From Escherichia coli (GTDB lineage: Bacteria; Pseudomonadota; Gammaproteobacteria; Enterobacterales; Enterobacteriaceae), in NCBI RefSeq assembly GCF_003334405.1, contig NZ_QOWM01000021.1: DNA of 53,345 nt. One strand, 5' to 3'. The position numbers and the translations under genes were made by a program. This document shows, one piece after another, positions 3,476 to 52,277 of the stretch. The notes under the pieces are model-generated. The model saw only the letters and a list, made by a program, of their open reading frames with translations. It had not been told where the DNA came from and made no database searches. Positions within the stretch are counted from its first letter, which is position 1. Each line of letters starts with the position of its first letter.

Positions 3476-4906
3476 ATGATACGTAAGTCAGCTACAGGTG
3501 TTATTGTTGCGTTAGCCGTAATCTGGGGTGGTGGCACATGGTACACAGGTACGCAAATTCAGCCTGGTATCGAAAAATTTATTAAAGATTTTAACGATGC
3601 TAAAAAGAAAGGTGAACATGCCTACGATATGACGTTAAGTTATCAAAATTTTGACAAAGGCTTTTTTAATTCCCGTTTTCAAATGCAAATGACATTCGAT
3701 AACGGTGCACCCGATCTCAATATCAAGCCAGGCCAGAAAGTTGTATTTGATGTGGATGTTGAGCACGGTCCGTTGCCCATCACAATGTTAATGCATGGTA
3801 ATGTCATCCCAGCACTGGCAGCGGCAAAAGTGAACTTAGTGAATAATGAACTGACACAACCGCTATTTATCGCCGCGAAAAATAAATCGCCCGTGGAAGC
3901 GACATTGCGATTCGCGTTTGGTGGCTCATTCTCTACGACATTAGATGTTGCCCCTGCAGAGTATGGAAAGTTTTCTTTTGGTGAGGGCCAGTTTACTTTT
4001 AATGGTGATGGTAGTTCATTGTCTAACCTGGATATTGAAGGCAAAGTCGAAGATATTGTTCTGCAATTATCACCAATGAACAAAGTAACGGCAAAAAGTT
4101 TTACCATTGATTCTCTGGCGCGATTAGAAGAAAAGAAATTTCCGGTTGGTGAAAGCGAGTCGAAATTTAATCAGATTAACATTATCAATCACGGGGAAGA
4201 CGTTGCCCAAATCGATGCTTTCGTTGCAAAAACCAGGCTGGATCGCGTTAAAGACAAAGATTATATCAATGTCAATCTCACCTACGAACTTGATAAGTTA
4301 ACAAAAGGGAATCAGCAACTCGGTAGTGGTGAGTGGTCATTGATTGCTGAATCTATTGATCCCTCAGCAGTGCGCCAATTTATCATCCAGTATAACATTG
4401 CGATGCAGAAGCAGCTTGCTGCACACCCTGAGTTAGCAAACGATGAAGTTGCTCTGCAAGAAGTGAATGCTGCATTGTTCAAAGAGTATTTACCGTTATT
4501 ACAAAAAAGTGAGCCGACCATTAAACAACCGGTAAGATGGAAGAACGCACTCGGCGAACTAAATGCCAATCTGGATATCAGTATTGCCGACCCAGCCAAA
4601 TCTTCATCATCCACAAACAAAGATATCAAATCGCTCAATTTTGATGTGAAGTTACCGCTTAATGTCGTCACAGAAACCGCAAAACAGCTTAATTTATCTG
4701 AAGGAATGGATGCGGAAAAAGCGCAAAAGCAGGCTGATAAACAAATCAGCGGGATGATGACATTAGGTCAGATGTTTCAGTTAATCACGATTGACAACAA
4801 TACCGCCTCGCTGCAGCTGCGTTATACACCGGGTAAAGTTGTTTTTAACGGACAGGAGATGAGCGAAGAAGAATTTATGTCTCGTGCCGGACGTTTTGTT
4901 CATTAA
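3476..4906 (+). CDS. yihF: DUF945 family envelope protein YihF
   Basis: ORF-track frame starts at GTG 3434; I prefer ATG 3476 (MIRKSATGVIVALAVIWGGGTWYTG..., N-terminal hydrophobic segment), giving 476 aa. Confidence 0.85.
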   Translation: MIRKSATGVIVALAVIWGGGTWYTGTQIQPGIEKFIKDFNDAKKKGEHAYDMTLSYQNFDKGFFNSRFQMQMTFDNGAPDLNIKPGQKVVFDVDVEHGPLPITMLMHGNVIPALAAAKVNLVNNELTQPLFIAAKNKSPVEATLRFAFGGSFSTTLDVAPAEYGKFSFGEGQFTFNGDGSSLSNLDIEGKVEDIVLQLSPMNKVTAKSFTIDSLARLEEKKFPVGESESKFNQINIINHGEDVAQIDAFVAKTRLDRVKDKDYINVNLTYELDKLTKGNQQLGSGEWSLIAESIDPSAVRQFIIQYNIAMQKQLAAHPELANDEVALQEVNAALFKEYLPLLQKSEPTIKQPVRWKNALGELNANLDISIADPAKSSSSTNKDIKSLNFDVKLPLNVVTETAKQLNLSEGMDAEKAQKQADKQISGMMTLGQMFQLITIDNNTASLQLRYTPGKVVFNGQEMSEEEFMSRAGRFVH

Positions 4907-41610: not shown

Positions 41611-44600
41611 TTACACCTTTTCCACATTCACAAGGAAGGACTTAAACTCCGGCGTCTGCGTGTTCGCATCACCAACGAATGGCGTTAAAGTATTGGCAAT
41701 AAAGCCTTTTTTAGCTACGCCTTCATAGCCCCAGTGAATCGGAATACCGATGGTATCGATATCTTTGCCGTTCGCTTTCAGCGTGCGAATACGTTTGGTC
41801 ACCACCGCTTTGGCTTTGATATAGCCACGGTTGGAGGAGACTTTCACGGTATCGCCCTGGGCAATGCCAAGTTTATTCGCCAGCGACTCCCCGATTTCCA
41901 CAAACTGCTCTGGCTGCAAAATCGCGTTCAACAGCGCGTGTTTGGTCCAGTAGTGGAAGTGCTCGGTCAGACGATAGGTGGTTCCGACATACGGGAACTT
42001 ATCGGCTTTACCCAATGCTTCGGCGTCGTCTTTAAAGATACGTGCAGCCGGGTTCGAGATAACGTTTGGATGCAGCGGGTTAGTTCCCAGCGGCGTTTCA
42101 AACGGCTCGTAGTGTTCCGGGAACGGACCTTCCGCCATCTTATCGAGGGCAAACAGACGCCCCATGCCTTCCTGCTGCATGATAAACGGCCCGACGCCGC
42201 TACCCGGAGGCGCTGCGCTGTAGTCCGGAATATCCCAGCCGGTCCACTTAGTGCCGTCCCATTTCAGCAACTGACGCTTCGGATCCCACGGGTTACCCTG
42301 CGGATCTGCGGAGGCGCGGTTATACAGAATGCGGCGGTTAAGCGGCCATGCCCATGCCCAGCCCAGCGTGTTACCGAGGCCAGACGGATCGGCGTTATCA
42401 CGGCGTGCCATCTGGTTGCCTTCCGGCGTCCAGCTACCGGCGAAAATCCAGCAGCCACAGGAGGTTGTACCGTCATCGCGCAATTGGGCGAACGAACTAA
42501 GTTGTTGGCCTTTCTTGACGATAACCGCACCGGTTGCCGGATCGGTAATATCGGCCAGCGCCTTACCGTTGCTCTCCATCGCCACTTCTTCTGAAGATGG
42601 CTCATGCGGAATGGCGTAGTTCCATGTCATGTTCAGCACCTGGTCCGGGTTCGCGCCACCCTGTTCGGCATACATCTTGCGCAAGCGCAGGAAGATACCG
42701 GAGAGGATCTCGCCGTCAGTCAGCGCAATCCCCGGGGCGTCCGCACCTTTCCAGTGCCACTGTAACCAGCGACCTGAGTTAACGATAGAACCGTTCTCTT
42801 CCGCGAAGCAGGTCGATGGCAGACGGAACACTTCGGTCTGGATCTTCGACGAGTCAACTTCGTTCAGCTCACCGTGGTTCTGCCAGAAGTTAGAGGTTTC
42901 AGTGTTCAGTGGGTCGATGGTGACGAGGAACTTCAGTTTCGACAGACAACCGATCACTTTGTTTTTGTTCGGGAATGAGGCAACAGGGTTAAAGCCCTGG
43001 CAGATATAGCCATTGACCTTGCCCTCTTTCATCATCTCGAAGTATTGCAGGACGTCGTAGCCTTTATCCCACTTCGGCAACCAGTCAAAGCCCCAGCTAT
43101 TTTCCGCCGTCGCTTTATCACCAAAGAAGGCCTTCATCATAGAGACGAAGAATTTCGGGTAGTTGCCCCAGTAGTTTACCTGGCCTTCCAGCAGCGGTTT
43201 TGGCGTGTTGGCGGTAAGGTAGGTTTGCAGATCGGTCTGCTTCTCGCTTGGCAGCGTCATGTAACCTGGCAGGCTCTGCGACAGCAGCCCCAGGTCCGTC
43301 AGCCCCTGAATATTGGAGTGACCGCGCAGGGCGTTAACGCCGCCGCCTGCCATCCCCATATTGCCGAGCAGCAGCTGGATCATCGCCATCGTACGAATGT
43401 TTTGCGCACCAACGGAGTGTTGCGTCCAGCCGAGGGCATACAGGAACGAGGCAGTTTTATCGTGAGCACTGGTTTCTGCGATGTATTCGCAGACTTTCAG
43501 GAACGCGTCTTTTGGCGTACCACAGATGTTTTCAACCACATCTGGCGTGTAGCGGGAAACGTGCTGTTTCAGCAAGTTCCACACGCAGCGCGGATGTTGC
43601 AGCGTGGTATCGCGTTTGGCGAAGCCGTTTTCGTCCAGTTCATAAGTCCAGGAGGATTTATCGTACTTGCGTTTTTCCGCGTCGTAGCCGGTGAACAGGC
43701 CATCTTCAAAGCCGTAATCCTCACGCACGATCAGGCTGGCGTTGGTATAGGCTTCGGTGTATTCGCGGTTGAATTTTTCATTGTTCAGCAGGTACAGCAA
43801 TACGCCTGACAGGAAAGCAATGTCAGTACCGGAACGAATAGGGGCATAGTAGTCAGCTACCGCCGCCGTACGCGTAAAGCGAGGATCGATCACAATCAGC
43901 TTCGCGCCGTTGTGAATTTTGGCTTCCATCGCCCAGCGGAACCCGACCGGGTGAGCTTCAGCGGCGTTACCGCCCATCACCACGACGAGGTTGGCGTTCT
44001 TGATGTCGACCCAGTGGTTGGTCATCGCACCGCGACCAAATGTTGGAGCAAGACTTGCTACCGTTGGTCCGTGTCAGACACGCGCCTGGTTGTCGACCGC
44101 GAGCATACCCAGCGCGCGGGAGAATTTTTGCGTTAAATAGCCGGTTTCGTTACTCGACGCGGAAGCACACAGCATCCCGGTGGAGAGCCAGCGGTTAACA
44201 GTCACGCCTTCGGCGTTTTGCGCAATGTAGTTAGCATCGCGGTCTTCTTTCATCAGTTTGGCGATGCGATCAAACGCCTCTTCCCAACTGATTTGCTGCC
44301 ATTTATCAGAACCTGGCGCACGGTATTCCGGAAACTTCAGACGGCTTTCGGAGTGGATGAAATCCACCAGGCCAGCGCCTTTCGGACAAAGTGCACCGCG
44401 GTTGACCGGGTGATCCGGATCGCCTTCGATATGGAAGATAGATGCTTTGGCGTTTTTTGCTCCGTCACCGAGGCTGTACATCAACAGCCCACAGCCTACG
44501 GAACAATAGGTGCAGGTATTACGGGTTTCGCGGGTGCGCAGCAGTTTATACTGCCGGGTTTCCGCGAGTGCTACGCTGGGTGCAAAACCCAGTGCCGCTG

Positions 44601-44661
44601 CCGTGGTGCCTGCCATACCGCCAGCGCAGATCTTAAAGAACTGCCTTCTGCTGACCTGCAT
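41611..44661 (-). CDS. fdoG: Formate dehydrogenase-O catalytic subunit (selenocysteine-containing; in-frame UGA at 44074-44076)
   Basis: Two ORF-track pieces (44074-44661, 195 aa, and 41611-44025) are in the same frame across a single TGA; N-terminus has Tat signal MQVSRRQFFKICAGG; the junction reads ...AVDNQARV-U-HGPTVASLAPTFGRG; total 1016 codons. Confidence 0.9.
44025..44073 (-). other. Putative SECIS element directing Sec insertion at the fdoG UGA
   Basis: Immediately 3' of the UGA the mRNA reads CACGGACCAACGGUAGCAAGUCUUGCUCCAACA, containing a hairpin (GCAAG...CUUGC), analogous to the fdhF SECIS placement. Confidence 0.5.
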
Positions 44662-45840: not shown

Positions 45841-46896
45841 ATGAAAAGGAATTTATTATCTTCCGCTATTATAGTCGCCATCATGTCCCTCGGTCTGACG
45901 GGTTGTGATGATAAAAAAGCCGAAACAGAAACGCTCCCGCCTGCCAATAGTCAACCTGCCGCACCAGCTCCTGAAGCGAAACCTACTGAAGCTCCCGTTG
46001 CAAAAGCAGAAGCTAAACCTGAAACACCTGCGCAACCGGTGGTCGATGAACAAGCGGTTTTCGACGAAAAAATGGATGTCTATATCAAGTGCTACAACAA
46101 GTTACAGATCCCGGTACAGCGCAGTCTGGCGCGTTATGCTGACTGGCTGAAAGATTTTAAACAGGGGCCTACCGGTGAAGAGCGTACTGTTTATGGCATC
46201 TACGGCATTAGTGAATCCAACCTCGCTGAGTGTGAAAAAGGCGTAAAAAGTGCTGTGGCGTTAACGCCTGCGCTGCAACCAATTGATGGCGTGGCGGTGA
46301 GTTATATCGATGCTGCCGTGGCGTTGGGTAATACCATTAACGAAATGGATAAATATTACACCCAGGAAAATTATAAAGACGATGCGTTTGCGAAAGGGAA
46401 AACGCTGCACCAGACATTCTTAAAAAATCTGGAAGCCTTTGAACCTGTAGCCGAATCTTATCATGCGGCGATTCAGGAAATTAATGATAAGCGTCAGCTT
46501 GCGGAACTGAAAAATATTGAAGAAAGAGAAGGGAAAACATTCCACTACTACTCTCTGGCAGTCATGATTTCAGCGAAACAAATTAATAACCTGATATCGC
46601 AAGATAAGTTTGATGCAGAAGCGGCAATGAAGAAAGTGTCTGAACTGGAAACGCTAGTGGCGCAGGCCAAAGAAGCGGATAAAGGCGGCATGAATTTCTC
46701 GTTTATTAATTCGGCAGGCCAGTATCAACTCGAGGCTAAAAAATACGTTCGCCGCATCAGAGATAAAGTCCCGTACTCTGACTGGGATAAAGAGCAACTT
46801 CAGGACGCAAACTCAAGCTGGATGGTCGAAGACTCTTTCCCGAGAGCATTACGCGAGTACAACGAAATGGTTGATGACTATAATAGCCTGCGTTAA
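45841..46896 (+). CDS. yiiG: DUF3829-family lipoprotein YiiG
   Basis: 351-aa ORF with lipobox MSLGLTGC after the signal peptide, and a Pro/Ala/Glu-rich linker. Confidence 0.85.
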   Translation: MKRNLLSSAIIVAIMSLGLTGCDDKKAETETLPPANSQPAAPAPEAKPTEAPVAKAEAKPETPAQPVVDEQAVFDEKMDVYIKCYNKLQIPVQRSLARYADWLKDFKQGPTGEERTVYGIYGISESNLAECEKGVKSAVALTPALQPIDGVAVSYIDAAVALGNTINEMDKYYTQENYKDDAFAKGKTLHQTFLKNLEAFEPVAESYHAAIQEINDKRQLAELKNIEEREGKTFHYYSLAVMISAKQINNLISQDKFDAEAAMKKVSELETLVAQAKEADKGGMNFSFINSAGQYQLEAKKYVRRIRDKVPYSDWDKEQLQDANSSWMVEDSFPRALREYNEMVDDYNSLR

Positions 46897-46915
46897 ACGT
46901 TTTTGATGATAAATG

Positions 46916-46944
46916 CAGTGTCGGATGCGGCGCATCCGACACAG
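46916..46944. terminator. Palindromic hairpin between convergent yiiG and frvR (REP-like, possible bidirectional terminator)
   Basis: GTGTCGGATGCGgCGCATCCGACAC, 12-bp perfect stem. Confidence 0.5.
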
Positions 46945-46945
46945 T

Positions 46946-48694
46946 TCACCCCTTGTGAAGTAACTCCATAAATGCCTCATATCCTGTTAACCCGGCAATA
47001 ATCTCCGCCGGATGCTGACACAATATGCTTGCCAGATAGCTAAATATTTTTAGCTCATGACGCGCATCGGCGGCGGCGCAGGCGATCAAGACATGGTTAA
47101 TGACTTCGTTATTCACCTCAACTGGTTGGGCGAGGGTAATAAAAAATCCACGAAAACGTCGCTCCTGTTCGCTCCAGCAATGTGGGATGGCGAGGCGATT
47201 AACAATCAGGTTTTCACCTTCGCCTTCGCGGGCGATGATGCGTTGTGCTTCATCGGCGGTAATATGGTGTTGTGCGACTAATTGCGCACAAATTTGCCGG
47301 GTAATATGTTGCCAGCTTTCACCGCGTACATTCGAATAATGAAAACTTCCGGGGGCAGAGAAAAAACGCTCCGGCTGTTGGCGAATAAATGCCGTCGCCA
47401 GAAAATGTTTTATTTGTTCGATACCGGCAGCCGTAATGATATTTTTTACGGTGATGTAATTATTTACCGCGTCATCCAGTAAATAATGGCTGTTGTTAAT
47501 GATCAATAACGGCTCAATCTCTTCGCGAATGGCAACAAGTTCGCTTAAGCTACGGGCAATAATTACCCGACAATTTAAAACATCGCGCTCAATGGCGAGC
47601 TGATTAATAGTGGCAATCGCGTTCTGGTCCGAGAGCAAAATGATCGGCTGGCGTTCGTTTTGATGCCGCTCCAGCGCACAGGCAAAATACAAACCGATCA
47701 GATCGCTGTCGAAAAGGGGAATATCGAGCTGTTCACGCAGTAGCGTAATAAAGTGCAGACTCATATCAAAGGCCGCAGGCCAGGCGGCTTTCAGGTTATT
47801 CATGCTGCTCTGGCGGTGCTCAGCAATCCACACTGGTGCGGCAAGGCAACGTAATAAATGCCCGGTAATATTCTCAACCAGCTGCGCATCAATAATATTC
47901 AATGACGCGATGCCCGGCACCCTTTGCAGCAACCCCTGCACATTATCGGCTGAAATTACCTGCGCTTGCTGATGCTGTTTCTCTATCAAACCCGTCAGGG
48001 TTCTTACAGCGTTATCACCAAGAAACAGACCGCTATGTTCAACGATTTGTTTTATCTCGTCACCGGGATATTGCGGCCACTCATCGGTCAGTTGATTACG
48101 CAGGGCGTAAATCGCCAGAATCAGGCTGGAGAGATAATCACCCTGCATGAGCGGCCAGCGGTGTTGGTTGTCGCAGGCCGTGGATAAATGCTGAAGGTTG
48201 TCTCGTGTTATGCCCGCCAGCGGAATTAAAAACGGATCTTTGCGCAGCAAGTTCGCCAGCAAGATAACGCGTTTCTCTTCTGTCTCATCAATGAAATGGC
48301 CCAAACCAGGGCGGCTGGCCAGGCAACAAGTGCGTTCATAACGCTGTTTTAACCGGGGCAGACGCTCTGCTACCCACGTTTCTGGCAAATTAAGCGCCGA
48401 GGCGAGTTGCGCACGGGGAGTGAAAGTATTCAGTAATAACAGCGCCAGCAGCCGATCGTCGTTATCGTGCTTTTGCAGCAACTGAAAAAAGCTGCGGCGC
48501 TCGAAGATTTCCAGCTGATAGCCCGCACTGCCACTGGCGAAAATGCGGGCTTTGCCGTTAAGGGTGAAGTTGAGATAGTCAATATCACGCAGGATGGTCC
48601 TGCCTGAAACGCCAGTCTGTTGCGCCAGCTCGCCAGGCGTGCGCGGCTGTTGCTCCAGCAGATCGACAATCTTTAACTGGCGTTCGTTTAGCAT
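46946..48694 (-). CDS. frvR: Transcriptional regulator FrvR
   Basis: 582-aa ORF with N-terminal HTH (ELAQQTGVSGRTILRDIDYL); start ATG overlaps the frvX stop (TAATG). Confidence 0.9.
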   Translation of the reverse strand: MLNERQLKIVDLLEQQPRTPGELAQQTGVSGRTILRDIDYLNFTLNGKARIFASGSAGYQLEIFERRSFFQLLQKHDNDDRLLALLLLNTFTPRAQLASALNLPETWVAERLPRLKQRYERTCCLASRPGLGHFIDETEEKRVILLANLLRKDPFLIPLAGITRDNLQHLSTACDNQHRWPLMQGDYLSSLILAIYALRNQLTDEWPQYPGDEIKQIVEHSGLFLGDNAVRTLTGLIEKQHQQAQVISADNVQGLLQRVPGIASLNIIDAQLVENITGHLLRCLAAPVWIAEHRQSSMNNLKAAWPAAFDMSLHFITLLREQLDIPLFDSDLIGLYFACALERHQNERQPIILLSDQNAIATINQLAIERDVLNCRVIIARSLSELVAIREEIEPLLIINNSHYLLDDAVNNYITVKNIITAAGIEQIKHFLATAFIRQQPERFFSAPGSFHYSNVRGESWQHITRQICAQLVAQHHITADEAQRIIAREGEGENLIVNRLAIPHCWSEQERRFRGFFITLAQPVEVNNEVINHVLIACAAADARHELKIFSYLASILCQHPAEIIAGLTGYEAFMELLHKG

Positions 48695-49764
48695 TAATCC
48701 ACCTGACGGAACTGGCTAAACGCGTTGACTTTCTCCGCAGTTAAGGTCGTCAGAAAACCCCGTATCAGCGTGAGCAGAGCTTCGTAATCGGCTTTTGAAA
48801 TCATACCGCTGTTGGCGTGCAGATAACGAGTTGGCAGACACAGCGCGACAACCGGACGCCCGCCGCCCATCACGTTGTAGCGCCCGCCATCCGTCGCACC
48901 GGTTTTCATGGTGGAAAATTGCAGCGGTAAATCGTTATGTGCGGCACAGCTTTTTAACGCTGCTACCAGTTTCTGGTTGGGGAAGTAGCGCTTGTCAAAC
49001 AGCATCAGCCCCGGCCCCTGGCCCAGTTTCAGCGGGTATTTAATGTTATCAATGCCCGGAACATCGCCCGCTACGGCGGTATCCAACACGATCACGACGT
49101 CCGGTTTAATGTGTTCCGCCGAGGTTTGCGCCCCGCGTAGCCCAACTTCTTCTTCCACACTGCCAACGCCATACAGCGTAATTTCGGGATTATTCACCGT
49201 CTGCAATAGTTCAGCCATCATTGCGCAGCCGATGCGGTTATCCAACGCCTTGCCGACCACTTTATCTTCGCCCCAGCAGGCAAAATTGGCTTCCGGGCTA
49301 ATAAAATTACCAATTTCCACGCCGCGCTTTTCCACCTCTTCGCGACTGTTCGCGCCAATATCAATGAACATCTCATCAAATGACAGCGGTTGTTGCTTTT
49401 GCTTTTCCGTTAACGCATGAGGCGCGACGGAACCAATCACACCAGGGATTTTCACTCCCTTGTGTGTGCGTATGGTTACCCGGTGGTTGAGCATCGACTG
49501 ATTCCACCAGCCGCCAATGGTGGTAAAACGCAGAAAACCGCTCTCGTCGATGTGGGTGACCATAAAGCCGACTTCATCCATATGTCCGACAACGGCAACT
49601 TTTGGACCTTTATTCCCCTTACGGGCAACAAAGCTGCCCAGACCATCGAAGGTGATTTCATTCACGCAAGGTTCCAGCGTGTTTATCAGAATGTCGCGAA
49701 CTTCCTGTTCATCGCCGCTGACGGCGCTGGCTTCGCACAACTGTTGCAGTAACTCAATGTTCAT
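48694..49764 (-). CDS. frvX: M42-family aminopeptidase-like protein FrvX
   Basis: ORF-track frame (TTG at 49770) trimmed to ATG 49764 (MNIELLQQLCEASAVSGDEQEV...), 356 aa, SD GGAG upstream. Confidence 0.9.
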   Translation of the reverse strand: MNIELLQQLCEASAVSGDEQEVRDILINTLEPCVNEITFDGLGSFVARKGNKGPKVAVVGHMDEVGFMVTHIDESGFLRFTTIGGWWNQSMLNHRVTIRTHKGVKIPGVIGSVAPHALTEKQKQQPLSFDEMFIDIGANSREEVEKRGVEIGNFISPEANFACWGEDKVVGKALDNRIGCAMMAELLQTVNNPEITLYGVGSVEEEVGLRGAQTSAEHIKPDVVIVLDTAVAGDVPGIDNIKYPLKLGQGPGLMLFDKRYFPNQKLVAALKSCAAHNDLPLQFSTMKTGATDGGRYNVMGGGRPVVALCLPTRYLHANSGMISKADYEALLTLIRGFLTTLTAEKVNAFSQFRQVD

Positions 49765-51205
49765 GGACAAGCTCCTGTTGCGCGGCTTTCGCTTTGCGGC
49801 GTAACCACAATCCTTTCAGGACGATAATGAATGAAATGTTCAGCGCGAGGCCAATCGCCAGCACCAGATAAAACGAACCCACCGGCGACATCAGGCCGAT
49901 CAGCGGGTCAAAGATACCCAAACCAGGTGCCAGACGTTTGATTCCGAAAGCGATCACCAGCACGCCGGTAATGCCGCCCGCCAGCGTATTGGCGGTAATC
50001 ATCGGCAACGGAGCTGCCAGAGCGTAAGGAATAGCCGGTTCGGTTGCGACTGTGGCACCGACCACAATGGCACTACTGGCAGCCTCTTTTTCCTGTCGGG
50101 TAAACAGTTTGGGCGCAATGAACGTCGCAAGACCCGCCGCGACGGGCGGCATCAGCGCGACAACGCCGACGATGGCGTACCAGTCATAAATGTGTTTTTC
50201 CAGCAGTGAGAAGCAGAAGAACCAGGCGGTTTTATTGATGGGGCCGCCCATATCGAACGCCAGCATCGCACCGACCAGAAACGCTGCCGCAAACTTCATT
50301 GATGGAGGAATGGTATTCAGGAAGTGGAGCAGCCCGCCCATGAGGTCGGACATCACCGGCCCGATAACGTAGTAAGTGAGCACGCCGAAAACCAGCAGAG
50401 TAACGAACGGGATCAGCATTGAACCGAGCAGCGGTTGTAATGCTTTGCCAAGGCGCACTTTGCGGAACCAGAAGACGAAATAGCCAATCGCCAGCCCCAG
50501 CACCACCGCGCCGAGGAATCCCGCACCCGACTGGGTGCCGAGCAGCGCTTTGTCGTTCGCCAGATAGCAAACCAGAAACGCCGGAGCGAAAGCCGGTTTA
50601 TCGGCAATCGACGAGGCAATATAAGCGCCCATGATGGGGATCATAAAGGTGAAGCCAAGGTAACCGATGGATTCAACTACCCAGGTAAACGACGGCGCGC
50701 CTTTCGACATATCGGTATACGGCAAACCGAACTGCACCAGCATGTTGGCAAGCGCCACCAGGATACCACCGCCGATGACAAACGGCAGCGCCGCAGAGAC
50801 GCCCGCCATCAGGTGGCTCATCACGCTACCGCTTTGCACTTCCTGTTTGCCAAGCTTCACGCCGCTATCTGCGGCAAAAAGCTGCGAGTTTGTCGGTAAT
50901 TCGCTGAAAATCTGGTCGATATTTTTCAACGCCTGGGAGATGGCAATCTCATAAACTTTCTTCCCGGCAAACCGCGCGCGATCATCACCGCTCAGGCCAC
51001 GCCCGGTAGCGAGAATGACGTAATCGGCAGCGGCAATCTCTTCGCTGGATAAGCGGTTTTCAACGCCACTGGACCCTTGAGTTTCCACTTTTATGGTATG
51101 ACCGAGAGAACGGGCTTTCTGTTCCAGGGCTTCCGCCACCATGTAGGTGTGAGCGATCCCGGCGGGGCAGTTGGTGATCGCGACAATACGTAAGGATGAC
51201 TCCAT
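49754..51205 (-). CDS. frvB: PTS fructose-like permease IIBC component FrvB
   Basis: ORF-track frame (GTG at 51211) trimmed to ATG 51205 (MESSLRIVAITNCPAGIAHTYM...; IIB active-site Cys in NCPAG), 483 aa; polytopic membrane domain. Confidence 0.9.
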   Translation of the reverse strand: MESSLRIVAITNCPAGIAHTYMVAEALEQKARSLGHTIKVETQGSSGVENRLSSEEIAAADYVILATGRGLSGDDRARFAGKKVYEIAISQALKNIDQIFSELPTNSQLFAADSGVKLGKQEVQSGSVMSHLMAGVSAALPFVIGGGILVALANMLVQFGLPYTDMSKGAPSFTWVVESIGYLGFTFMIPIMGAYIASSIADKPAFAPAFLVCYLANDKALLGTQSGAGFLGAVVLGLAIGYFVFWFRKVRLGKALQPLLGSMLIPFVTLLVFGVLTYYVIGPVMSDLMGGLLHFLNTIPPSMKFAAAFLVGAMLAFDMGGPINKTAWFFCFSLLEKHIYDWYAIVGVVALMPPVAAGLATFIAPKLFTRQEKEAASSAIVVGATVATEPAIPYALAAPLPMITANTLAGGITGVLVIAFGIKRLAPGLGIFDPLIGLMSPVGSFYLVLAIGLALNISFIIVLKGLWLRRKAKAAQQELVHEH

Positions 51206-51215
51206 CGCCACTTCC

Positions 51216-51662
51216 TTATGAGCTGAGGGTTTGATTTAACAAGGCAAGCACCTGGTCGGTATCGCCCTGTTGCAGTTGATGAATAAATTCCTTGTGAATA
51301 ATTTTGCGACACAGTGTGCCGATGATTTTGACCTGATCCTCTTCGCCGCTTTGCGGCACGCCGAGGCAGATCCAGCAATTGACGTCTTCGCCATCGCTGG
51401 CTTTCCAGTCAATAGCCTGCGCTTTGCGGGCGAATAATACGAACGGTTGTTTAACGCAGGCGCTTTTACCGTGCGGCACGGCGACACCGGAACCAAATCC
51501 AGTAGAGTGCATTTTTTCGCGCAGCAGCAGGGTTTGCAGGAACTGGTGTGAGTCGGTGATAAAACCGTTTTGTAACGCTATTGTCGCCAACTGCTTCAGA
51601 ACGGAATAAGCGCCATTGCCCTGAATATTCAGGTCAATACAGCTTGCAGTAAGAGCTGCCAT
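51216..51662 (-). CDS. frvA: PTS fructose-like IIA component FrvA
   Basis: 148-aa ORF; IIA(Fru/Mtl)-type phosphorylation His in GFGSGVAVPHGK. Confidence 0.9.
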   Translation of the reverse strand: MAALTASCIDLNIQGNGAYSVLKQLATIALQNGFITDSHQFLQTLLLREKMHSTGFGSGVAVPHGKSACVKQPFVLFARKAQAIDWKASDGEDVNCWICLGVPQSGEEDQVKIIGTLCRKIIHKEFIHQLQQGDTDQVLALLNQTLSS

Positions 51663-51914
51663 TAATCGGACTCCATAAAATATATTTTAATCAATTGTAA
51701 TGGTGGAGCGATTAAGTGATGAGAGGCGATATGTCGGTAAACAATGACAATTTGAGACAGAGTGAAAGGTCAGATTTGCGGAGTAATGCACATAATGGTT
51801 ATTTAAATAAACCACATGAATCATTAATGGGTTATTCATTATTTTTGTGATTTACTCACAATGTATCAGGGAAATATAACTTACCGGGAGATGTAATATG
51901 TTTAATTTTTCAAA

Positions 51915-51958
51915 TCGAAATTTAAAATATTGTGCCGGAGGCATCTCTGGCACATTGG
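51915..51958 (-). terminator. Putative intrinsic terminator after rhaM
   Basis: On the minus strand, a 9-bp-stem hairpin (TGTGCCAGA...TCCGGCACA) followed by ATATTTTAAATTT. Confidence 0.45.
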
Positions 51959-51962
51959 GCAA

Positions 51963-52277
51963 TTACGGCAGGTAAAACACTTCTTGCAGCTCGCTACTCA
52001 CCGGGCTGTTATCCGGGTTAGCGGGCATAACATCGGTCATATATTTCCACCAACGTTGGCAAACATCAGTGCTGGCAACCGCATTCCAGCGTTCTTCAGA
52101 TTCAATCTCTACCATGGCAAACAGCAGATTACGCGCTTTGTCGAGATAGATGGCGTAGTTATGCGCACCGTGAGATTTCAGCACTGCTTCCAGTTCTGGC
52201 CAGATGGGATTATGCCGACGCTGATACTCTTCGTGGGCGTCGGGGTTTACCTGCATGACAAAGGCTTTGCGGATCAT
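51963..52277 (-). CDS. rhaM: L-rhamnose mutarotase
   Basis: 104-aa [49 protein letters not shown].... Confidence 0.9.

Follow-up and report, generated by a model that had tools for sequence, protein, structure and literature searches.

The frvABXR operon of Escherichia coli, which unites a permease of the phosphoenolpyruvate (PEP)-dependent phosphotransferase system (PTS), a hydrolase of the M42 family and a large regulator, is on the best reading of its sequence a self-contained, functional PTS uptake-and-processing module and not a relic. The operon was analysed in a 53,345-nucleotide (nt) stretch of E. coli contig NZ_QOWM01000021.1, hereafter called the window, where frvA-frvB-frvX-frvR constitute a 4.7-kb minus-strand operon that exactly spans positions 46946-51662 and is flanked by yiiG/fdhD and rhaM/rhaD. 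All four open reading frames (ORFs) are intact: on the minus strand, frvA (51662-51216) encodes 148 amino acids (aa), frvB (51205-49754) 483 aa and frvX (49764-48694) 356 aa, both counted from the ATG, and frvR (48694-46946) 582 aa. K-12-type E. coli chromosomes annotated frvA/frvB/frvX/frvR match the span at 100% identity, and FrvA, FrvB, FrvX and FrvR each score above their own NCBIfam equivalog cutoff, confirming the gene identities and order given in the initial annotation. The gene set is an already known, annotated operon of E. coli, the description of which is said to go back to Reizer and coworkers in 1994. A literature search found no functional study of any frv gene, and a 2023 review gives frvA and frvB merely as "putative, fructose-like", in agreement with the earlier statement that the substrate is undefined. 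The borders between the genes were read directly in the sequence. Ten nucleotides separate the TAA of frvA from the ATG of frvB, frvB and frvX overlap by 11 nt (ATGAACATTGA), and the last A of the frvX TAA is the first A of the frvR ATG (TAATG, a 1-nt overlap), exactly the tight packing that had been pointed out before. Since Citrobacter and Klebsiella show identical 11-nt and 1-nt overlaps, we judge this packing to be a conserved feature and not chance.

The pairing of a PTS permease with an M42 hydrolase, which the initial annotation had called unusual, proved instead to be recurrent. A K-12-type genome has three M42 genes, each within a PTS operon, the other two operons being fryB-fryC-ypdF-ypdE-fryA and sgcX-sgcB-sgcC-sgcQ-sgcA-sgcE-sgcR. 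A cross-species scan with one genome per species yielded 80 loci. Wherever the M42 protein was at least 59% identical to FrvX, frvA and frvB were found directly upstream and a frvR-like gene downstream (42 of 42 loci). These loci derive from 33 Enterobacterales-type species, including Salmonella diarizonae and representatives of Citrobacter, Klebsiella, Kluyvera, Trabulsiella, Buttiauxella, Atlantibacter and Rahnella, and from nine environmental Listeria species. Among the M42 genes with at most 44% identity to FrvX, 37 of 38 were without a fructose-family PTS neighbour, a count to be read with the limits that other PTS families are undetectable by the scan and that some contigs are short. Judged from these genomes, the PTS-M42 pairing is recurrent and, for the FrvX clade, evidently obligatory. 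One contig (L044), labelled Chryseobacterium sp. 18061, carries an Enterobacteriaceae-type frv (FrvX 76%, FrvB 88%) that is almost the same as that of "Citrobacter sp. 18056" (L062) from the same project, and is probably a mislabelled or contaminated assembly.

The cassette occupies unrelated chromosomal sites in Hafnia, Klebsiella and Listeria, in the latter among surface-protein genes, which indicates that it moves as a unit. FrvA (164.7 versus a cutoff of 151) and FrvB (889.6 versus 806) of Listeria riparia both pass the equivalogs derived from E. coli. In each host the GC content of the cassette is near that of its flanks, which points to old transfers followed by strong protein constraint. 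The cassette of Hafnia alvei (L003/L004, 7085-11917) lies between xanthine-dehydrogenase-like genes and ispH and has a GC content of 44.8% compared to 50% in the flanks, consistent with acquisition by transfer. A more distant version was found in a low-GC bacterium, in which a fused FrvAB-like EIIABC protein reached 735.6 bits on the FrvB model compared to 258 for FruA; its gene overlaps an FrvX-like M42 gene (43-44% identity) by 8 nt, and the regulator is of the RpiR/SIS type. At this low-GC locus and at all Listeria loci, a gene for a PatB-family C-S lyase dependent on pyridoxal phosphate (PLP) directly follows frvX, the L. riparia protein scoring 357.9 bits with a PatB cutoff of 340. Beyond this PatB-type lyase, no other catabolic gene accompanies the frv cassette in the loci compared. 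A peptidase followed by a PatB lyase represents an established two-step route for cysteine conjugates (PMC7385124). The genes flanking the Listeria cassettes, encoding an LPXTG protein, an SdrD-like surface protein and a lyase of polysaccharide-lyase family 8 (PL8), were considered as substrate clues and dismissed, as they are inconstant across species. The PL8 gene (hyaluronate/chondroitin lyase-like) is located just downstream of the operon in five of the nine Listeria loci (L053:12091-14454; L055, L059, L060, L063).

FrvX matches the Pfam family Peptidase_M42 (PF05343) over the complete model (positions 1-292 of 292, E = 1.9e-102) and obtains 843.6 bits on NCBIfam NF007367, the cutoff of which is 569. 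It stays under the cutoffs for the glutamyl aminopeptidase (TIGR03107, 217.9 versus 469.7), the archaeal lysyl aminopeptidase (NF040822, 200 versus 700) and YpdE-type proteins (NF007421, 280.6 versus 412). The nearest relatives in the PDB are Bacillus subtilis YsdC (1vhe, 1e-86) and PhTET2 (1y0r, 4e-67). The concern raised earlier that FrvX might lack its metal-binding and catalytic residues can be set aside, as all five metal ligands (H61, D175, E206, D228 and H316) are present together with the catalytic E205 and with D63. All of these residues are invariant from E. coli to Hafnia, and the ligand columns are invariant in 83 M42 sequences, save at D228, where 73 sequences have Asp and 10 have Glu. 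The spacing of the ligands is identical to that of PhTET2, at an offset of 7 in what we take to be the numbering of this enzyme. The catalytic glutamate of PhTET2 is E212 (PMC3511314). FrvX is predicted to be a catalytically complete dinuclear M42 metallohydrolase. In addition, the PTS-linked FrvX clade has 29 fixed residues that are seldom found in YpdE, SgcX and the stand-alone M42 enzymes; of these, seven are basic (H71, H94, R99, K123, K258, R259 and R303) and one is acidic, and several adjoin catalytic motifs (H316-A317-N318 and D257-K258-R259-Y260). Such a basic-rich signature would be compatible with a specialised, anionic and possibly phosphorylated substrate. Among the nearest FrvX representatives, proteins of approximately 700-790 aa (P0245, P0248, P0255, P0259, P0264 and P0273) contain two M42-like stretches and are apparently tandem M42 fusions.

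The two PTS proteins likewise keep their predicted phospho-sites. FrvA is an enzyme IIA (EIIA) of the fructose/mannitol/Ntr type (NCBIfam NF007389, 289.9 bits versus a cutoff of 151; TIGR00848, 146.6 versus 103.5), the predicted phospho-acceptor of which, His64 in the motif GVAVPHG, is invariant in E. coli, Enterobacter and Hafnia. FrvB represents a fructose-family EIIB-EIIC protein (NF008493, 1034 bits versus 806) that passes the domain cutoffs of TIGR00829 and TIGR01427, carries a complete EIIC(Fru) domain and shows its predicted phospho-cysteine, Cys13, in the motif NCPAGIAHTYM, invariant from E. coli to Hafnia. FrvB fails, however, the equivalog of the true fructose permease FruA (NF007984, 271 versus 793) as well as the MngA model (256 versus 763). 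As it falls so far under these cutoffs, we take "fructose-like" to be a family label and not the substrate. Within the cassette frvB is the most conserved gene, its product being 77-78% identical to the Listeria orthologues.

To evaluate the possibility raised earlier that the operon might be decaying, the locus was compared to four E. coli alleles that diverge from it (94-97% DNA identity). The frv ORFs were all intact in these alleles, and the ratios of nonsynonymous to synonymous divergence (dN/dS) were 0.08-0.36 for frvA, 0-0.056 for frvB, 0.02-0.10 for frvX and 0.07-0.11 for frvR. Thus, where the operon is present it is not decaying, with values across the genes of 0.00-0.36, mostly <0.15, and the strongest purifying selection on frvB. 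The synonymous divergence (dS) within E. coli is high (0.08-0.31, versus L007-L010). Among frv-lacking E. coli (L021, L022 and L002), yiiG has been truncated along with the loss of the operon in two isolates of blood and clinical origin, and strain YZMc10-2 carries an IS1 element between yiiG and rhaM instead of the operon.

Several putative regulatory elements were detected upstream of frvA, all read on the minus strand. An inverted repeat, TGTCA-N8-CGACA (51749-51732), starts 87 nt upstream of the frvA ATG and is a candidate FrvR operator; a site resembling the CRP consensus, TGTGC-ATTACT-CCGCA (51792-51777), lies 130 nt upstream; a -10-like hexamer, TACAAT (51699-51694), is found 37 nt upstream behind a poor -35 element; and a Shine-Dalgarno sequence, GGAG (51671..51674), was read directly 8 nt before the ATG. 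In a five-genus alignment the CRP-like site, the repeat and the -10 box occurred at fixed offsets from the start codon, the arms of the repeat being invariant and its spacer freely variable. Extending this to the species set, the repeat is present at -86 to -88 in 27 of the 33 Enterobacterales-type loci and in the form TGTCA-N9-TGACA in all nine Listeria loci and in Rahnella; in the 53-kb window the pattern occurs once, with 0.14 occurrences expected. Since the repeat follows FrvR across phyla, we regard TGTCA-N8/9-nGACA upstream of frvA as the probable FrvR operator. The pattern TGTGn-N6-nCrCA at about -130 was found in 29 of 33 Enterobacterales-type loci, and no Listeria locus has it; as it was assigned by its similarity to the CRP consensus, we refer to it as CRP-like. 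A TAnnAT hexamer at about -37 is present in 29 of 33 loci. A scan for the sigma-70 consensus upstream of frvA found no complete promoter, consistent with dependence on an activator. Taken together, the conserved promoter architecture argues for regulated rather than dead expression of frv. An Rfam scan of 46700-52100 gave two sub-threshold chance matches only, and therefore no leader or antiterminator RNA is assumed. The right arm of the E. coli repeat, CGACA instead of TGACA, was considered as a cause of silence and rejected, as this base varies between T, C, G and A across species. Directly after the frvR stop codon, between the convergent genes yiiG and frvR, a hairpin with an 11-bp stem (46918..46942) folds with -22.7 kcal/mol as RNA (z = -5.4 versus shuffles) and is likely a bidirectional terminator or a REP-like element closing the operon.

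Within E. coli, the frvA promoter region exists in two clearly different haplotypes with either TTGTTTAC or CGACTTCA as spacer of the repeat, which together with the high dS suggests old allelic lineages or recombination. A palindrome, TGTGA-N5-TCACA (51846-51860, 198 nt upstream of frvA), is restricted to the K-12-type haplotype and straddles the junction of a porin deletion. Many non-K-12 E. coli carry, divergent from frvA and 477 bp away, a gene for a 464-aa RafY-type glycoporin (Pfam Porin_8, E = 5e-152; in O157:H7, L020:5952-7863), which K-12 has lost, the homology to O157 breaking between window positions 51850 and 51962. This porin was rejected as a core part of the system, as K-12 has frv without the porin, frv-minus strains have the porin, and other genera have none.

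By sequence, FrvR reveals little of its architecture. Pfam detected only HTH_11 (residues 5-60) and PTS_EIIA_2 (455-560, E = 3.4e-13), the N-terminus weakly matches that of AcpB/EbpR/MafR, and no PDB relative was found by sequence other than PtsN, the only hit of an FrvR profile. An AlphaFold (AF2) model built from 29 homologues (mean confidence, pLDDT, of 85.8) predicts for the 582-aa chain a winged helix-turn-helix (HTH) domain (1-63), a second winged HTH (66-135), two helical bundles resembling PTS regulation domains (PRDs; ~139-343), an EIIB(Gat)-like alpha/beta domain (349-439) and an EIIA-like domain (451-581) with His505. A Foldseek search with the whole chain retrieved MgaSpn (5way, E = 3e-10 over 490 columns), AtxA (4r6i, 1.3e-9) and an Enterococcus Mga-family protein (3sqn, 1.4e-9), with whole-chain template modelling (TM) scores of merely 0.35-0.44, as expected for multidomain chains; the C-terminal domain matched PtsN and EIIA-Mtl with TM scores of 0.72-0.75. 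H76, H279, C339, H505 and C539 are invariant in the 29 homologues. H505 aligns with the "AIPH" motif of PtsN, and H279 is the sole invariant histidine of the helical region, compared to four conserved phosphorylatable histidines in PRDs of the MtlR/LicR type. From the predicted fold, the conserved His505 and His279 and the phylogenetic footprint we infer that FrvR may act as an MtlR-like, PTS-controlled DNA-binding activator. Further truncated or frameshifted FrvR clusters were noted (P0175, P0210 and P0213).

Elsewhere in the window, a 195-aa ORF on the minus strand (44074-44661), ending in "...DNQARV", halts at an in-frame stop within the annotated 1016-aa formate dehydrogenase alpha subunit; we take this stop to be a selenocysteine UGA.

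We propose, with modest confidence, that FrvAB import and phosphorylate a sugar-containing conjugate, that FrvX cleaves an amide bond in the product and that FrvR activates the operon from the repeat under PTS control, with an additional CRP input in enterics. The phosphoryl group would be passed from PEP via enzyme I (EI) and HPr to His64 of FrvA, then to Cys13 in the IIB domain of FrvB and finally to the sugar moiety crossing the IIC domain of FrvB, a phosphorelay suggested by family membership and the conserved phospho-sites. As the genes are strictly co-inherited and translationally coupled, FrvX is considered likely to act on the phosphorylated product. Cleavage of an amide bond in this product, be it aminoacyl, peptidyl or N-acyl, would provide central metabolism with a sugar phosphate and set free an amino compound, which in Listeria and the low-GC bacterium could be handled by the PatB-type PLP-dependent C-S lyase. 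The binding site of FrvR would be the TGTCA-N8/9-nGACA repeat ahead of a weak frvA promoter, and PTS phosphorylation would switch the regulator depending on the availability of the substrate, the CRP-like site adding catabolite control in Enterobacterales. Going further, frv might constitute a dedicated route for a new class of PTS nutrient, an aminoacyl- or peptidyl-sugar conjugate, maybe containing cysteine, with FrvX acting as a phospho-conjugate amidase and not as a peptidase of protein turnover, and with the PatB lyase finishing the pathway in Firmicutes; this extension is tentative, and we rate it as possible rather than probable.

A number of observations weigh against the proposed function. 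The cassette encodes no further sugar-phosphate enzyme, and therefore the sugar product must be a common metabolite, which is an extra assumption. A literature search found no report on an frv substrate, transport, hydrolysis, DNA binding or expression. The operon is dispensable, being kept in 4179-4185 of 5426 complete E. coli genomes (approximately 23% are without the locus), and insertion sequences of the IS1, IS4 and IS5 kinds occur within the frv region. Every biochemically characterised M42 enzyme, the former "cellulases" included, is an ordinary peptide aminopeptidase (PMC3511314), and a sugar conjugate as substrate would be unprecedented in this family. The enrichment of basic residues in FrvX is an observation on alignment columns. 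As to the regulator, the PRDs of FrvR were seen neither by Pfam nor by the profile search against the PDB, so that their assignment rests on the predicted fold, and the EIIB-like domain is without the regulatory cysteine of MtlR, having Ser, Asp or Ala, but never Cys, after the first strand. For these reasons an MtlR-style phosphorylation logic for FrvR is an analogy. Finally, a 448-aa FrvR allele without the EIIA-like domain is common (cluster P0151, 1875 member sequences); it ends cleanly after ...RFFSAP (~window position 47351) and could be a widespread nonsense allele or a contig-end artefact.

The main rival to a sugar-conjugate pathway is a reading of FrvX as a general aminopeptidase of the cytoplasm, the gene of which merely shares a transcript with a PTS that takes up a free fructose-like sugar, the two being coupled in expression, for example in carbon/nitrogen balance, without a chemical link. 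The biochemistry of the characterised M42 enzymes speaks for it, as do the TET-type aminopeptidases that are the closest solved relatives of FrvX and the names "fructose" or "fructose-like" of the models matched by FrvA and FrvB; the paralogue YpdE, too, was reportedly described as a broad-specificity aminopeptidase by Zheng and coworkers in 2005. Nevertheless, we regard this explanation as unlikely, since a loose nutritional link does not predict co-inheritance in 42 of 42 loci with translational coupling across phyla, nor the transfer of the pair as a unit under different regulators (FrvR and RpiR), nor the lack of such PTS neighbours around stand-alone M42 enzymes, nor clade-fixed residues beside the active site. 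Moreover, the score of FrvB far under the cutoff for the true fructose permease does not fit a fructose-like sugar. Even less support was obtained for FrvX as a glycoside hydrolase of the "endoglucanase/cellulase M" type acting on a phospho-glycoside. Several PDB relatives still carry the label "endoglucanase", and a glycosidase is what one would conventionally expect beside a PTS, but the proteins from which the label stems, CelM and TmPep1050, are cobalt-activated leucine aminopeptidases without cellulase activity, CelM resembling no CAZy family (PMC3511314), and FrvX has a full dinuclear metallopeptidase site. The endoglucanase assignment is ruled out by this published biochemistry, and a glycosidic function is already effectively refuted.

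The absence of frv from approximately 23% of complete E. coli genomes, together with deletions, the insertion elements, the truncated FrvR alleles, the missing sigma-70 consensus promoter and a literature search without a phenotype, might indicate that the E. coli operon is a silent leftover, strictly cryptic, kept by drift or hitch-hiking and heading for loss. This appears improbable, as dN/dS is far below 1 in all four genes at dS values of 0.08-0.31, catalytic and phospho-sites are intact, the promoter, candidate operator and CRP-like elements keep their positions from genus to genus, and the cassette is kept in dozens of species at different loci; it is these selection and footprint data that weaken the relic reading. 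Judged by its pattern of retention and selection, frv is an accessory but functional module. A mainly regulatory role, with FrvA, FrvB and FrvR as a signal-sensing phosphorelay like the Ntr-PTS and FrvX as the regulated output enzyme, would account for the resemblance of FrvA and the C-terminal domain of FrvR to EIIA-Ntr/PtsN and for the missing downstream sugar-catabolic enzyme. However, FrvB has a complete EIIC permease domain and is under the strongest purifying selection of the four gene products, and the position of frvR within the operon near its own conserved operator candidate is the usual arrangement of substrate-specific catabolic systems, making a mainly regulatory phosphorelay very improbable.

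The frv operon is one of several orphan PTS systems of the best-studied bacterium, the substrate of which has been elusive since genome sequencing. As permease, M42 hydrolase and regulator with its candidate operator appear to be inherited as a unit from Enterobacterales to Listeria under strong constraint, the peptidase is considered integral to the pathway. If FrvX were indeed a phospho-conjugate amidase, an M42 enzyme would for the first time have a physiological role on a small molecule, and the pairings in fry (ypdE) and sgc (sgcX) would probably be explained as well. The candidate operator, the phospho-sites of FrvR, the clade-specific FrvX residues and the PatB-containing Listeria version provide handles for a substrate search. 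A solution for frv could uncover a class of nutrients new for bacteria of gut and soil, and the reason why all three M42 enzymes of E. coli are found in PTS operons.

The closest known systems are the fry and sgc operons of the same genome, which like frv contain an M42 gene inside a PTS operon with an undefined substrate. The metal ligands and the catalytic glutamate of YpdE and SgcX are identical to those of FrvX, at overall identities to FrvX of 36% and 29%, respectively. In contrast to frv, the fry operon includes an M24 peptidase and its own EI-HPr-EIIA protein, and the sgc operon a galactitol-family PTS, an epimerase, BtpA and a DeoR regulator, and regulators of the FrvR type are absent from both. 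With the TET/M42 aminopeptidases (YsdC 1VHE, PhTET2 1Y0R, TmPep1050 and CelM) FrvX has in common the fold family and the dinuclear site (full-length E values of 1e-86 to 1e-53), but these are stand-alone peptide trimmers, from which FrvX differs by its PTS neighbours and the 29 clade-fixed, mostly polar or basic residues near the catalytic motifs. By predicted fold, FrvR shares the layout HTH-HTH-PRD-PRD-EIIB-like-EIIA-like with B. subtilis MtlR (PMC8560693), which has a regulatory Cys419 in its EIIB(Gat)-like domain and His599 in its EIIA(Mtl)-like domain. From activators of the MtlR, LicR and ManR type it differs by PRDs unseen in sequence, by the lack of a Cys419 equivalent and by occurring mainly in Gram-negative Enterobacterales. 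The Mga/AtxA virulence regulators (PRD-containing virulence regulators, PCVRs) end with an EIIB-like domain and are without an EIIA-like domain (PMC8560693). FrvR, which would work in the manner of these regulators, has such a C-terminal domain and hence is nearer to the MtlR layout.

As a working analogue of the whole operon we consider mngR-mngA-mngB, the PTS for 2-O-alpha-mannosyl-D-glycerate, in which a hydrolase cleaves the phosphorylated conjugate to give a sugar phosphate and the aglycone. The design of a minimal Fru-family PTS with one cytoplasmic hydrolase and a regulator is shared with frv, an amidase replacing the glycosidase, and MngA is among the best-scoring other models for FrvB, albeit far below its cutoff, and for the fused low-GC homologue. 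MngB is an alpha-mannosidase and MngR a GntR-type repressor, whereas FrvX is a predicted amide-bond metallohydrolase. In malX-malY a PTS permease is combined with a C-S lyase of the PatB/MalY type, the link between MalX and MalY itself being unexplained. The frv loci of Listeria and the low-GC bacterium likewise join a PTS with a PatB-family C-S lyase, whereas E. coli frv is without a lyase gene. The peptidase plus PatB route for Cys-Gly S-conjugates known from the body-odour pathway (PMC7385124) finds its counterpart in the Listeria and low-GC versions, which place the lyase gene directly after the peptidase gene, with the difference that uptake in the body-odour pathway proceeds by a peptide transporter and in frv by a PTS.

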